The notes beneath the pieces are model-generated. The model saw nothing but the letters and a program-made list of their open reading frames with translations, was not told where the DNA came from and did no database searches. The translations under genes were made by a program, and so were the position numbers. Shown piece by piece: positions 22,762-61,016 of a stretch of DNA of 64,000 nt (position 1 is its first letter; each line of letters starts with the position of its first letter). The stretch is from contig CAWEQU010000008.1 of the NCBI GenBank assembly GCA_963811305.1, forward strand, positions 1,422-65,421, written 5' to 3'. This stretch comes from an uncultured Chloroflexia bacterium (lineage in GTDB: Bacteria; Chloroflexota; Chloroflexia; QHBQ01; JADMIH01).

Positions 22762-22833
22762 AGAAATTAGAAGTTAGAGGTTAGAAATTAGAAGGCAAGA
22801 ATGGCATCTTCTAGCTTCTAATTTCTGACTTCT
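22762..22833. repeat. Inverted 7-mer arrays (ttagaag family) between etfB and etfA
   Basis: agaaattagaagttagaggttagaaattagaagg ... cttctagcttctaatttctgacttct. Confidence 0.85.
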
Positions 22834-22839
22834 CAGTCT

Positions 22840-23628
22840 TTAGATTAGCTTTCTACCCTCAAGGAAATCCGCTATCGCCGCAGCCGTCGTCGCGGGGTCT
22901 TCGGCTTTGATTATCTGCTTGGCGCGGGCGGTCTGAGGACGCTCTGTGCCAGTGACGGTGGTCCCGCTGCCCGCCAGTCCAACCTGCGATGGGTCAACGC
23001 CCAGGCTGCCGAGGTTGAGGGTGGCGATCTCCTTCTTCTTGGCTTTCATTATGCCGGGGAGTGACGGGTAGCGCGGCTCGTGCGCGGTCTGTGTGACCGA
23101 AGCGATAGCAGGCAGGGGCGCTTCCACTACATCGTACCCAACGTCGCTTCCTCGCTTGCCTCGCACCTTTCCACCGGTGACCTCAATCTCGTTCACCCAG
23201 GTAACGGCAGGGACGCCCAGCATCTCGGCCACCACGTTGTAAATCATCCCGCCCCCGGCGTCGGTGCTCTGCGACCCAAACATAATGAGGTCGTATTGAG
23301 TCTGCTTGAGAGCTTCGGCCAGCACCTTGCCCGTGGCCCACATATCGGAGCCGTGCAGCGCGGGGTCCGTGACCAGTATTGCCCTATCCGCGCCCATCGC
23401 CAGGCCCTTGCGTATAGTTTCAGGGCTGCTCTCCAATCCCATGCACAATAGCACTATCTCGCCTGAGCCGCCATCTGCTTCGCGTATTCGTAACGCCTCT
23501 TCTATGGCGTATTCGTCCCAGGGGTTGATTATGGCGGGAACGCTCGCCCGGTCCAGCGTGCCATCAGGGAGCAGCCGCTTCTCGGCAGTCGTATCCGGCA
23601 CCGATTTCATACAAACAACTATGTTCAA
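22840..23628 (-). CDS. etfB: Electron transfer flavoprotein beta subunit
   Basis: (M)NIVVCMKSVPDTT... I prefer the TTG start at 23628, which follows AGGAGA, over the ORF-track ATG at 23661. Confidence 0.9.
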   Translation of the reverse strand: MNIVVCMKSVPDTTAEKRLLPDGTLDRASVPAIINPWDEYAIEEALRIREADGGSGEIVLLCMGLESSPETIRKGLAMGADRAILVTDPALHGSDMWATGKVLAEALKQTQYDLIMFGSQSTDAGGGMIYNVVAEMLGVPAVTWVNEIEVTGGKVRGKRGSDVGYDVVEAPLPAIASVTQTAHEPRYPSLPGIMKAKKKEIATLNLGSLGVDPSQVGLAGSGTTVTGTERPQTARAKQIIKAEDPATTAAAIADFLEGRKLI

Positions 23629-23751
23629 TCTATCTATTCTCCTGTAGCGCAATACGCGCATTCTACGGTAGTTTTCAACCTGTGAATCGTATCACAAAGC
23701 AACCTGAACGGCAAGCTAACGTGAGTAGCGAGTGATGGGTGTTGGCTTCTC

Positions 23752-23806
23752 AACTCGTAATTCGTAATTCGTAACTCGTAATTCGTAATTCGTAATTCGT
23801 AACTCA
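23752..23806. repeat. Tandem 7-mer array (cgtaatt/cgtaact), about 8 units
   Basis: aactcgtaattcgtaattcgtaactcgtaattcgtaattcgtaattcgtaactca. Confidence 0.9.
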
Positions 23807-23904
23807 CACCGCATTCCTAACCACAGGCGGGACTAAAGTACGCGCGTGCAAATCTATACAAAGGGAGTTTGCCATTGTATAATACGCGAGAGAGGGGGGT
23901 GCAG

Positions 23905-24993
23905 GTGGGAGCTGTGGCTTCTGTGGTTTCGGATGCCTATAAGCAGGCTGGCGTGGATATAGACGCGGGAGCGCGAGCCATCGAGCTTATGCGCTCTGCC
24001 GTCCGCTCGACATTCGGCCCGAAGGTACTGGCCGACATCGGGCATTTCGGCGGCCTGTATGCTCTGGAATCGGCTCCCAACGGGCAGGTGCTGGTTGCAA
24101 GCGCGGACGGCGTTGGCACCAAACTGAAGCTGGCTTTCGCCCTGGGCACCCACCGCAATGCCGGGCACGATATCGTCAATCACTGTATAAACGATATCCT
24201 GGCGTGTGGCGCGAGGCCCTTCTTCTTCCTCGATTACGTAGCTTCGGGGAAGGTCGTACCTGAACAAATCGCAGAGGTAGTGACGGGCATGGCCGAGGCT
24301 TGCCAGGCGGCTGGTTGCGCACTCCTAGGGGGTGAGACCGCAGAGATGCCGGGCATGTATCACGACGGGGAATACGATGTCGCGGGCTTCATCGTTGGAG
24401 GAGTACAGCGAGACCACTTGATACTGGGCAAGACGATTGAGCCAGGGGATGTTGTGCTCGCACTCCCCTCAAATGGCCTGCACACTAACGGCTACTCTCT
24501 GGCGCGCAAAGTGTTGGGCCTGGAGGACGATCTCGCGGAAGCGCGTAGGCGGCTCAATGCCTACGAAGGGACCCTAGGCTGCACACTCGGAGAAGCTCTG
24601 ACGAGGCCCCATCGCTCCTACCTGTCTGAGATAGCGCCTCTGCTCGATATGGAGGAGCAGCCGATCAAGGGTATGGCACACATCACGGGCGGCGGACTCC
24701 TGGACAACATACCGCGAGTGCTACCCGAAGGGTGCGCAGTCCGCCTCGACACCGCAACATGGAGCGTACCTCCCATTTTCCAACTGATTCAGGAGCGTGG
24801 AAGTATAAAACCGGGCGAGATGGCAAGGGTGTTCAACATGGGCCTGGGGATGGTTATGGTTGTTGCGCCCAAAGACGTGGAAGCTGTAAGATCGCAGGTG
24901 TCGGAGATGATAGAAGTGGGCAAAGTTGTCTGGCAGGAGGGTGATGAGCGCGTTAGCCTCATTAGCAGTGATACAAGTGCCGGCAGCGCGTAG
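23905..24993 (+). CDS. purM: Phosphoribosylformylglycinamidine cyclo-ligase (AIR synthetase)
   Basis: YKQAGVDIDAG...DGVGTKLKLA...GGETAEMPG. I prefer the GTG start at 23905, after a G-rich SD. The ORF track starts at 23869. Confidence 0.9.
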   Translation: MGAVASVVSDAYKQAGVDIDAGARAIELMRSAVRSTFGPKVLADIGHFGGLYALESAPNGQVLVASADGVGTKLKLAFALGTHRNAGHDIVNHCINDILACGARPFFFLDYVASGKVVPEQIAEVVTGMAEACQAAGCALLGGETAEMPGMYHDGEYDVAGFIVGGVQRDHLILGKTIEPGDVVLALPSNGLHTNGYSLARKVLGLEDDLAEARRRLNAYEGTLGCTLGEALTRPHRSYLSEIAPLLDMEEQPIKGMAHITGGGLLDNIPRVLPEGCAVRLDTATWSVPPIFQLIQERGSIKPGEMARVFNMGLGMVMVVAPKDVEAVRSQVSEMIEVGKVVWQEGDERVSLISSDTSAGSA

Positions 24994-59821: not shown

Positions 59822-59826
59822 AGAGG

Positions 59827-59874
59827 GTGATGCGTGATGCGTGAGATTAGTATCTAACTCGTAACTCGTAATTC
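59827..59874. repeat. Composite 7-mer arrays (cgtgatg, then cgtaact/cgtaatt)
   Basis: gtgatgcgtgatgcgtgag ... aactcgtaactcgtaattc. Confidence 0.8.
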
Positions 59875-59927
59875 CCCAAGAACCTCTACGCTCTCTGCGT
59901 CTCTGCGGTGAATTAACGCCTCGGTGT

Positions 59928-60188
59928 TCACACAAAGGTGTGGTCAACGTAGCACCAGGCCCAGTCTTCGCCGCGCTCGAAGGACTGGACGATAGGGTGC
60001 TGGGTGGCGTGAAAGTGCTTGGAGGCGTGCTTGTTCTTGGAGGAGTTGCAGCAGCCTACGTGCCCGCAGGTGAGGCAGATGCGCAGGTGTACCCAGCCGT
60101 CTCCCGTTTTGAGGCACTCTTCGCAGCCCGGCGCGCTCGGCATGACTTCGTGTATCTGGTCGAGATGGGTACACTCAGGGTCGTTCAT
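59928..60188 (-). CDS. UBP-type zinc finger domain protein
   Basis: CTHLDQI...CEECL...WVHLRICLTCGHVGCC...HATQHP is the zf-UBP pattern. I prefer the ATG at 60188, which forms an ATGA overlap with the upstream stop. Confidence 0.75.
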   Translation of the reverse strand: MNDPECTHLDQIHEVMPSAPGCEECLKTGDGWVHLRICLTCGHVGCCNSSKNKHASKHFHATQHPIVQSFERGEDWAWCYVDHTFV

Positions 60189-60742
60189 TTCTTTACCCTC
60201 AACGTCCACGCTGCAAGACCTTGCAATACTACGCCTACGCGCTCTCGTATCTCAGCGTCCAAGAGGTTCCCGTCTTTGTCGAACTTCTCCCAGGAGCGCT
60301 GGACCATCAGTTCCGGCTTTGGCATGACCAGCGAGTTGGTGAAGACGAACACCTGCCTCAGGTGCAATTGCGAGCGTACCGTGCCATAAAGCCCGCCCGC
60401 CCCCATCAGCGCGATTGGCTTCTCTATCAAAGGGCTAGTTTCGGGCGGGCGCGAAACCCAGTCAATAGCGTTCTTCAATACGCCGGGGATCGAGTAGTTG
60501 TACTCAGGGGTGGCTATCAACAGCGCGTTTGCGGCGGCTATCCTCTCTTTCAAGTGGCGCACCGCCTCAGGGTCGCCTTGAGCCTGCACATCCCCATTAT
60601 ACAACGGTATCTCTGATAGGTCGTAGGTCTCTATGGTCATGCCATCAGGGACTAGCTCGGTTGCCACCCTCAGCAGGCCCTTGTTTACCGAACCTCTTCT
60701 CAAGCTCCCCGCAATCCCTAAAACGTGTATTGTATCTGCCAC
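60185..60742 (-). CDS. NADPH-dependent FMN reductase
   Basis: VLGIAGSLRRGSVN and ATPEYNYSIPGVLKNAIDW are present. Confidence 0.85.
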   Translation of the reverse strand: MADTIHVLGIAGSLRRGSVNKGLLRVATELVPDGMTIETYDLSEIPLYNGDVQAQGDPEAVRHLKERIAAANALLIATPEYNYSIPGVLKNAIDWVSRPPETSPLIEKPIALMGAGGLYGTVRSQLHLRQVFVFTNSLVMPKPELMVQRSWEKFDKDGNLLDAEIRERVGVVLQGLAAWTLRVKK

Positions 60743-60840
60743 AAGTATCGCCCTCCCTATTTATTCCAGCACTCTACATTATATAGGGTCATGCAAACCC
60801 GTAACTTTCCCTTTTCGGTTACTCGCCAATATGAAGTCAT

Positions 60841-61016
60841 CCCGAATTTTGAACAAGCGTCATTAGAATAGACGGAACCGCCAAGACGCCAAGGTCGCCA
60901 AGAGCGCCAAGATATTAGAGGAAGTAGTGCCTCTCACTGCCCTATAATCCCTCTTTTATCTTGGCGGGTTCTTGGCGCTCTTGGCGTCTTGGCGGTTCCG
61001 TACTCTAAAATTCGGG
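60841..61016. repeat. ~175-bp imperfect palindromic element built from cgccaag 7-mers
   Basis: cccgaatttt...ggaaccgccaagacgccaaggtcgccaagagcgccaagat / loop / atcttggcgggttcttggcgctcttggcgtcttggcggttcc...aaaattcggg. Confidence 0.85.

Follow-up and report, generated by a model that had tools for sequence, protein, structure and literature searches.

The window analysed here, a stretch of 64,000 nucleotides (nt) from an uncultured soil Chloroflexia bacterium (C8:1422-65421 of a 4.6-Mb, 21-contig genome of 57% G+C, labelled G000), carries in its right-hand part numerous tandem arrays of 7-nt words that obey a common rule of orientation: the G-richer strand runs 5′ to 3′ toward the centre of a cluster, such that either strand reads G-rich arrays, centre and then C-rich arrays. 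The explanation that we favour, with moderate confidence, is that the arrays are arms or remnants of foldback elements of fixed polarity, the full form of which carries a gene of family PF05635, and that these change by slippage, recombination between arms and replacement. A sequence-only reading of the window had drawn attention to the arrays; its observation is confirmed and its interpretation is in part supported, as the arrays appear to be of the same kind as the short tandemly repeated repetitive (STRR) sequences of cyanobacteria and to have spread, and do not appear to be terminators. Tandem heptamers have been known in bacteria since 1990, with no accepted origin or role.

The genome is a metagenome bin (71% complete) with a gene content of Chloroflexota type (F420 biosynthesis, luciferase-like oxidoreductases, electron transfer flavoprotein (ETF) and purine genes), and the best identity of the window PurH in a comparison set without the window's own lineage is 51%, to Chloroflexota metagenome bins. 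The window contains no rRNA, and an Rfam scan at gathering thresholds returns zero families. Exact arrays of at least three copies number 775 genome-wide at period 7 and 5-31 at periods 5, 6, 8 and 9, whereas arrays in which mismatches are allowed number 1257 at period 7 and 4-54 at periods 4-6 and 8-12. This census, which the sequence-only reading had proposed, thus gives a 25-100-fold excess of period 7 over other periods. The canonical word families number 52 among the exact and 86 among the imperfect arrays, and the frequent words (GACGATA, GGATTTT, GACGATG, GGACGAC, AATTACG and GATGCGT) contain no GGG runs. Cyanobacterial STRR words include CCCCAGT, TTGGTCA and CAACAGT, and none of the frequent words here matches these sequences. 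Array length has its mode at 26-34 nt and does not decay steadily, with ACG-type words reaching 15-21 copies. Many arrays are perfect, and others hold an amplified variant unit (e.g. GAATTAC ×3 followed by AAATTAC ×3 at 50979). One-base steps between word families number 17, compared with 7.9 ± 2.7 for composition-matched random words. Arrays are clumped along the genome (index of dispersion 3.2; 24 of 221 20-kb bins empty against 0.95 expected), and neither G+C content nor the amount of non-coding DNA was retained as a cause, the correlations being weak or absent (rho 0.21 and -0.05).

Within the window, Tandem Repeats Finder (TRF) gives ∼45 period-7 rows between 22762 and 59871 and zero to the left of 22762, in agreement with the initial observation that no array lies left of 18.1 kb, and our own detector gives 34 arrays in 18 canonical word families. 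The perfect tandem 7-mers are real, and eleven of the twelve units named at the outset lie at the positions given for them; the twelfth, cgccaag (60879-60994), has a repeat period of 8-9, its CGCCAAG core being extended by 1-2 bases. Arrays had been placed in nearly every intergenic region of the right-hand part, a claim that did not hold under our stricter detector, by which 12 of the 25 right-part gaps of at least 40 nt contain an array and none of the 14 gaps left of 22.7 kb does.

Among neighbouring arrays no more than 150 nt apart, a G-rich array is followed by a C-rich array in 199 pairs (∼30% of arrays) and the reverse order occurs in 2, and neighbours of different families exhibit the same bias (133 and 1). 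Same-family inverted pairs number 93, against 10.8 ± 3.3 in label shuffles, direct pairs only 5, and every family has a single arm order (e.g. AATTACG...CGTAATT, 15:0). The five hairpins that had been cited are all present, with arms of 31-44 nt that are 84-100% complementary; inverted pairs therefore exist, but to call them usual overstates their number, as the 93 same-family pairs comprise ∼15% of arrays genome-wide. Arrays with no partner within 300 nt follow the rule as well, those nearer the left gap edge being G-rich in 156:48 and those nearer the right edge C-rich in 106:47, irrespective of whether the adjacent gene end is 5′ or 3′. The arrays are thus strictly oriented, and the random orientation that the sequence-only reading had named as a refutation is not observed; the reference of the orientation is the gap itself and not gene 3′ ends. 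The same polarity is observed in relatives (17:2), in a genome of another family, G120 (4:0), and in viral loci (15:0). Perfect inverted repeats that overlap arrays are G-first in 163:5, and other inverted repeats in 478:255. Two candidate causes were rejected: a general trait of hairpins, since away from arrays only 65% are G-first in a set dominated by a few families of repetitive extragenic palindromes (REPs), and the stop or start codon content of the words, since by eye stops occur in the G-rich or C-rich orientation depending on the word. As word families are linked by one-base steps, they group into ∼10 clans, and the polarity accordingly rests on ∼10 independent cases and not 25. Since ‘always convergent’ GGGAATC pairs have been reported in Xanthomonas (PMC4692102), the rule is a generalisation and not a first sighting.

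The second line of evidence is the association of the arrays with PF05635 genes. The open reading frame (ORF) at 33283-33663 encodes 126 residues that match PF05635 (23S rRNA intervening-sequence protein) at 113.6 bits and also match bAvd-like; the nearest solved relatives are 2RLD and 2GSC, the latter from X. campestris, a heptamer-rich species. The cassette formed by this gene and its flanking arrays lies between an unannotated ORF (31514-33217) upstream and an amidase gene, and not in a 23S rRNA helix. Its site spans 459 nt in G000 and 164 nt, without the gene, in the closest relative, G004; a clean empty site was not obtained in G004, where a right-arm remnant is retained and an unrelated hairpin is present. 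Inverted arrays enclose 8 of the 9 PF05635 loci of G000, with a different word at each locus and the G-rich arm first on either gene strand, whereas only 5 of 887 small genes have same-family arrays on both sides. Across the order, 41 of 68 PF05635 loci have arrays on both sides, of the same family in 28, and regardless of gene strand the nearest left array is G-rich in 40:6 and the nearest right array C-rich in 38:3. The trend extends to the phylum, as flanking arrays occur at 18 of 29 loci from 29 other genomes (same or one-step word at 10), 11 of the 29 are enclosed by a long inverted repeat, and the left array is G-rich in 14:1 and the right C-rich in 11:0. Loci with the same word (distance 0) have a median protein identity of 67%, and those at word distance 4 one of 27% (Spearman rho -0.28; 0 ± 0.03 in permutations). 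Several PF05635 pairs that share a word have outer flanks with no detectable similarity, although these flanks are short. The family is homologous to Avd, an accessory protein of diversity-generating retroelements, and certain 23S rRNA intervening sequences contain genes for its members (PMC10053308); no reverse transcriptase was seen beside the PF05635 genes, although no search was aimed at reverse transcriptases, and we found no paper that links the family to heptamer repeats.

The features of the window, with their state in G004 where it was compared, are as follows (folds are of RNA; hairpins with heptamer arms give z-scores of -5 to -12).

1-18100: array-free segment, G+C 57-64%, with essentially no DNA match in four congeners.
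22762-22833: AGAAGTT ×4.7 and CTTCTAA ×3.7, inverted, a hairpin downstream of the ETF-alpha gene (TRF; fold -33.2 kcal/mol, z -5.2).
23755-23802: TCGTAAT ×6.9, a lone array between the ETF-beta and purM-like genes.
26139-26210: AGTTACG/TAACTCG hairpin with 32-nt arms, 94% complementary (fold -47 kcal/mol, z -9.7).
28581-28660 (plus strand): interdomain linker of PurH (Pfam on the ORF), CGGACGA ×4.1 then AATCCAA ×4.4, translated in frame, G-rich first.
33218-33690 (plus strand): gene-in-foldback cassette, GCAGAAG ×2.6, PF05635 gene 33283-33663, CTGCCTT ×3.7.
35301-35405: TGATGCG ×3.4, an 8-9-mer array of CTTGGCG type and TCACATT ×2.6, at the start of the amidase ORF.
40729-41208 (minus strand): GGAGTGC, GAGGAGT and TCCTGAT, at the 5′ end of a YfhO-like ORF and within the C-terminal tail of a glycosyltransferase ORF.
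46384-46495: GTAGTCG ×4.3, 68-nt loop, TACCGAC ×2.3 (fold z -5.3); the G004 site has only a 30-nt decayed array.
47849-48074: composite cluster of GTGAAAC, GTGATGC, 83-nt loop, TCACGCA ×5 and CTATCGT ×9.1; the loop is kept in G004, where the arrays are replaced by related words.
49514-49569: AGTTTTG ×4.6 then CACGCAT ×2.9; TGAGTTC at the G004 site.
50979-51077: GAATTAC/AAATTAC ... TAACTCG/TAATTCG hairpin (fold z -7.8); (TCTATCG)×14 at the G004 site.
52955-53043: hairpin with 31-nt arms of decayed heptamers (fold z -11.1), the arms 100% identical in G004.
54305-54421: composite cluster of GGACGAC ×5.9, GAAACGT, CGTGATG and CTACTGC/CTTCTGC; the G004 site has other words and retains the order G-rich then C-rich.
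57042-57177 (plus strand): composite module copy of GTGAAAC, GTGATGC and an AATTACG/CGTAATT hairpin (perfect 32 bp; fold -52.7 kcal/mol, z -8.3) and CTCTGCGGTGAAT; a luciferase-like gene follows directly downstream.
59827-59915 (plus strand): second composite module copy, GTGATGC, GATTAGTA, a CGTAAYT arm, CCCCAAGAAC, CTCTGCG repeats and GGTGAAT.
60841-61016: nested palindrome with outer stem CATCCCGAATTTT/AAAATTCGGGATG and inner CGCCAAG arrays of 8-9 nt (fold -92.6 kcal/mol, z -12.4); the corresponding gap of G004 contains a plain hairpin.

Two further observations concern the same region. A perfect hexamer array, GTAGAT ×14.5 (34087-34173), lies within the long amidase ORF (33693-35384, minus strand) and would give a dipeptide repeat. 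Just after purM and purN, a Roadblock/LC7 protein is encoded beside a small Ras/Arf-like GTPase (25613-26801), an MglB/MglA-like pair whose members are separated by a heptamer hairpin.

The third line of evidence is the recurrence of arrays in fixed orders. The order GTGAAAC then CGTGATG is present at 47851, 54348 and 57043, exactly as had been reported, whereas the second reported order, cgtgatg before cgtaatt, is only approximate: the array that abuts at 57069 is AATTACG, the opposite arm of the hairpin, and the one at 59855 is a mixture of CGTAACT and CGTAATT. The junction GAAACGTGATGCGTGA occurs in 158 copies in G000, 222 in G004 and 109 in a single genome from another family, the remaining 27 relatives having 0-26. 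Of 155 copies examined, 37 are followed by CTCTGCGG within 260 nt and none is preceded by it. The composite module comes in two subtypes, the non-repeat linkers of which are conserved, and GACGAYR and YATCGTC arrays flank many of its copies. At no fewer than seven loci both arms display the same order of variant units around unrelated loops (e.g. AAAGGAA AAAGGAT AAGGGAT AAAGGAT AAA), and a whole composite element at C7:533792 is present in G000 and missing in G004. The recurring orders, shared linkers and patchy copy numbers indicate that part of the system consists of dispersed copies and is not due to local slippage; the suggestion of a repeat-spreading mechanism is supported to this extent by the 158-copy junction and its patchy occurrence among relatives. 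Set against a miniature inverted-repeat transposable element (terminal inverted repeats, target-site duplication, conserved interior), the composite module displays a conserved interior and presence or absence at a site; the loops of the simple hairpins are unrelated to each other, and no duplication was seen in the copies read by eye.

Comparison with relatives, likewise proposed by the sequence-only reading, reveals both copy-number and presence/absence differences. Eighteen species of the genus are represented by genomes. Array density was sampled in six, four of which share the period-7 excess, with densities that start at 23-27 per 100 kb and reach 57, whereas a single sample of 20 kb contains no array; the word sets differ in part. 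Other families of the order have 0-45 arrays per 100 kb, and 1.38 Mb from other phyla has a density of 1.4 per 100 kb. In G120, a genome of 67% G+C from another family of the class (loci L171-L185), 22 of 25 arrays are AAAATCC, arranged as GGATTTT...AAAATCC hairpins, and G192, of the same genus as G120, has no (AAAATCC)3 match. The coding DNA of G004 is ∼84% identical to the window and collinear with it at 40.9-63.4 kb. Breaks in this alignment coincide precisely with the gaps that hold arrays, and arrays occupy the same gaps in both genomes with another copy number or word. Among 115 orthologous gaps, 68 have an array in neither genome, 30 in both (∼13 expected if independent) and 17 in one genome only, and the word is common to 10 of the 30 shared sites and differs in 20. 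Copy number changes in 7-nt steps (AATTACG ×2 vs ×11 at 52096; ACGCATC 2.6 vs 3.7). Words of ACG type change freely between the two genomes, and AAAATCC, ACTCCGC, AAATCCG, AAAACTC and AAAATTC have equal copy numbers of 3.7-4.7 units. The 52955-53043 hairpin has identical arms in G004, between which the loop is the reverse complement of the G000 loop at 16 of 19 bases (by eye), an inversion that points to recombination between arms. The purH linker of G004 contains both G000 arrays plus a third, and is 15 residues longer. Local change takes the form of 7-nt copy-number shifts, of mutated units that are themselves amplified and of entire clusters exchanged for others within a given gap.

By our own gene calls, at least 59% of arrays are strictly intergenic in a genome of which 20% is non-coding, and another quarter touch ORF ends. 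Per kb of gap, arrays number 1.31 in co-directional, 0.78 in divergent and 0.59 in convergent gaps. A terminator scan gave 18 sites, against 13.6 ± 3.6 in shuffles, with no heptamer hairpin among them, and the folds exhibit no U tract after heptamer stems. The scarcity in convergent gaps, the absent U tracts and the outcome of the scan together argue that the arrays are not classical terminators, one of the functions that had been proposed. For annotation, it is relevant that arrays lengthen ORFs at either end and add floppy segments to proteins such as PurH. Gaps between genes, floppy linkers of proteins and the genomes of phages all tolerate arrays.

The array-free segment at 1-18.1 kb has a higher G+C content and weak codon scores, and encodes ordinary metabolism (NAD-glutamate dehydrogenase, SBP56, QueA, a short-chain dehydrogenase/reductase, creatininase, a glutathione S-transferase and a fumarylacetoacetate (FAA) hydrolase). 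It has essentially no DNA match in G004, G003, G001 and G012, two short marginal matches and a 55-nt palindrome excepted, and is probably an acquired island that has not gathered arrays; the absence of arrays may also mark recently acquired DNA. Viral contigs that share words with G000 (57-65% G+C) are crowded with arrays. The maximum, 20 arrays in 14 kb, is found in the 14.2-kb IMG/VR contig L211, a tailed-phage head module with terminase, portal, protease and capsid genes. Such crowding implies that the process or element acts on phage DNA too. The gene gaps of L211 are filled with AGGAGTT/CTCCTAA, the G-rich word of which holds the Shine-Dalgarno core AGGAG, and the C-rich CCTCCTCC lies just upstream of at least one start codon (7336).

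Other repeats of the window are distinct from the heptamers. The 55-nt palindrome, CCTTCACACATCAAAATGAGCGCC-AGAG-GGCGCTCATTTTGATGTGTGAAGG, is perfect and lies at 18118-18172, the right edge of the array-free segment; it matches at least 20 G004 loci, on both strands, and is thus a dispersed hairpin repeat. A non-heptamer palindrome at 58208-58260, between two F420-related genes, consists of two perfect 26-nt arms and a loop of a single nucleotide; the C-rich arm is the 5′ one, opposite to heptamer hairpins, and in G004 several changes in one arm are all matched by the other. REPIN-like doublets of a GTAGGGGC-type REP are found at 36122-36203 and 40835-40909 (perfect 28-nt and 23-nt arms), and GTAGGGGC-type palindromes also flank a PF01797 gene at C8:381825-382166, which resembles a REP-associated tyrosine transposase (RAYT), the whole forming a system separate from the heptamers. 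Nested palindromes on TGTCATTCTGAGCGAAGCGAAGAAT occupy 44549-44718, and TGTCATTC[CT]GA-type arms account for 46 of the 788 perfect inverted repeats away from arrays, constituting another dispersed family.

In the explanation that we favour, the full form of the element would enclose a small PF05635 gene (Avd-like, four-helix-bundle), as at 33218-33690, and most copies would be cargo-less hairpins, single arms or nested composites. By analogy with PF05635-bearing 23S rRNA intervening sequences, RNase III would cleave a stem of ∼30 bp formed in the transcript, and an element thus excised or insulated in RNA would be nearly harmless within operons. The PF05635 protein may, more speculatively, recognise the word of its own arrays and contribute to the maintenance or spread of the element. 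A number of points weigh against such a scheme. Excision at the RNA level is an analogy only, and ∼70% of arrays have no detected partner. Most hairpin loops lack similarity to PF05635 genes, and the descent of hairpins from gene-bearing cassettes is what we infer. PF05635 count and array density correlate weakly (rho 0.51, p 0.035; 17 genomes, small samples), the same word may accompany proteins that are 26-35% identical, identical proteins may have different flanking words, and the co-divergence of word and protein could be plain co-inheritance. No target-site duplications were seen in copies read by eye, and no mobility enzyme was identified; RAYT was rejected for this role, since the sole clear RAYT (PF01797, C8:381825) has its own GTAGGGGC-type REPs and no heptamers nearby. 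Finally, our gene calls are home-made (3920 genes, 80% coding), and the gap classes carry some error.

The foremost rival holds that the arrays are pure simple-sequence repeats, generated by a replication or repair polymerase of the lineage that slips by preference in 7-nt units, with arrays growing at any site that tolerates them, inverted pairs formed by template switching and no element, gene partner or function. The amplification of mutated units in place, the difference of AATTACG ×2 vs ×11 at a single site in two species, and the excess of one-base word steps are all consistent with it, and the filling of phage DNA is as expected of a cell-wide process. Heptamers are moreover over-represented in many bacteria, for which a polymerase footprint has been suggested (Mrazek 2007, as cited in PMC4692102). 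Slippage leaves unexplained, however, the 199:2 polarity, the length mode of ∼30 nt, the 158-copy junction with its conserved non-repeat linkers and patchy spread, the identical order of variant units at many loci and the near-exclusive bracketing of PF05635 genes, and we consider it unlikely.

A distinctly unlikely alternative is that of regulatory hairpins, selected by the host for a role at transcript ends or between cistrons (terminators, attenuators, RNase III sites or mRNA stabilisers), for which repeats would be no more than a handy means of making long stems. The stems are indeed very stable, co-directional gaps have the most arrays, conservation of the arms at 52955-53043 is 100% relative to ∼84% in the coding flanks, the five families listed above keep their copy number in G004, and the 58208-58260 palindrome, although not of heptamers, keeps perfect pairing despite changes. 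Selection of this type is difficult to reconcile with the minimum of arrays in convergent gaps, the lack of U tracts and the silent terminator scan, with unrelated words in G004 at two thirds of shared sites and occupancy of 17 of 47 sites in one genome only, or with the unpaired state of ∼70% of arrays, the presence of arrays within coding linkers and an 18-kb island wholly devoid of them.

Telomere-like break healing, in which G-rich 7-nt units are added to 3′ ends at double-strand breaks, rejoining leaves facing arrays and repeated breaks at palindrome centres nest the clusters, would account for a polarity that matches exactly a head-to-head fusion of two telomeres and applies at 5′ and 3′ gene ends alike, for inner elements nested in the loops of outer hairpins, and for the polarity retained in the purH linker. 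We regard it as very unlikely: 86 word families would need many templates or a template-free mechanism, loops or centres are often the conserved part while arrays change (47800-48110), modules with fixed non-repeat linkers look copied and not synthesised, no candidate enzyme is to hand (none was sought), and the polarity fits equally well an element with defined ends.

That the arrays are an artefact of assembly, as a 21-contig, 71%-complete metagenome bin might suggest, has a negligible probability: independently assembled genomes of other species, G004 included, have arrays at the same gaps with other copy numbers and words, the same words recur, with a very high summed depth, in contigs from four soil metagenomes unrelated to this one (a single contig spanning the 52955-53043 hairpin), and the purH arrays keep the reading frame. 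The sequencing runs listed contain only 5-8% of the sampled words and come from related species at ∼92-93% identity.

The regularities that narrow the range of explanations are the near-absolute inward polarity common to some 25 word families, the patchy dispersed composite modules and the phylum-wide link to PF05635, with the word tracking the protein; this link opens a testable lead to the origin of heptamer repeats. A broader and rather doubtful proposal is that the heptamers of cyanobacteria (STRR), Xanthomonas, Beggiatoaceae and the present genome are arms or debris of one widespread PF05635 foldback element, built of inverted heptamer arrays with a fixed G-to-C polarity, in which a pentameric protein would read the word and help to keep, copy or move the element, the word co-evolving with it. 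If true, bacterial tandem heptamers would share a single undescribed kind of element. Heptamer repeats and convergent pairs are already known in bacteria, and the present arrays are a rich variant, the function and spreading mechanism of which we infer.

Among known systems, the REP/REPIN-RAYT system resembles the heptamers in its dispersed intergenic hairpins, conserved arms, variable spacers and fixed arm order, but the RAYT of this genome is flanked by the GTAGGGGC-type REP family and heptamers are not next to it. The TAACTGA direct repeats of Beggiatoaceae, cyanobacteria and Bacteroidetes (MacGregor 2015, PMC4679880), for which a repeat-binding protein was suggested as a possible mobile agent, are similar in that arrays are mixed with related 7-mers, indels between close strains occur in 7-nt steps, occasional in-frame copies lie in protein surface loops and the spread across phyla is patchy. 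Those repeats are oriented to the downstream start codon with one inverted pair reported, whereas here the orientation follows the gap and not the gene, and inverted pairs are common. STRR of cyanobacteria comprise several tandem heptanucleotide families (Mazel et al. 1990, as cited in PMC4692102); they share with the present arrays a mostly intergenic location, hundreds of sites per genome and an unassigned function. The phylum and words are different, and the arrays here exhibit strict inward polarity, frequent hairpins, a ∼30-nt preferred length and recurrent orders. The description of the arrays as comparable to STRR but more diverse and modular is therefore apt as to kind, modularity and diversity (86 families), and not as to a heterocystous cyanobacterial host or the STRR1-3 sequences. 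The closest counterpart of the polarity is provided by the Xanthomonas GGGAATC repeats, of which 70-75 close pairs are described as always convergent, one per strand (Rehm et al. 2015, PMC4692102), which is the G-rich-then-C-rich order found here. These and the Nostoc GGGGAYT repeats are intergenic tandem heptamers, as here, and in Xanthomonas the repeat length varies across sister species while the type (single or pair) is retained, again as here (PMC4692102). Xanthomonas has one word family against 86, the Xanthomonas and Nostoc words form G-quadruplexes whereas most words here lack G runs, and the composite modules, nesting and gene link of the present arrays are not described for them (PMC4692102). 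The 23S rRNA intervening sequences, in turn, also present a gene for a PF05635 four-helix bundle in the loop of a long stem within a transcribed region (PMC10053308), the differences being that heptamer arrays make up the present stems, which lie in gene gaps and not in rRNA helices.

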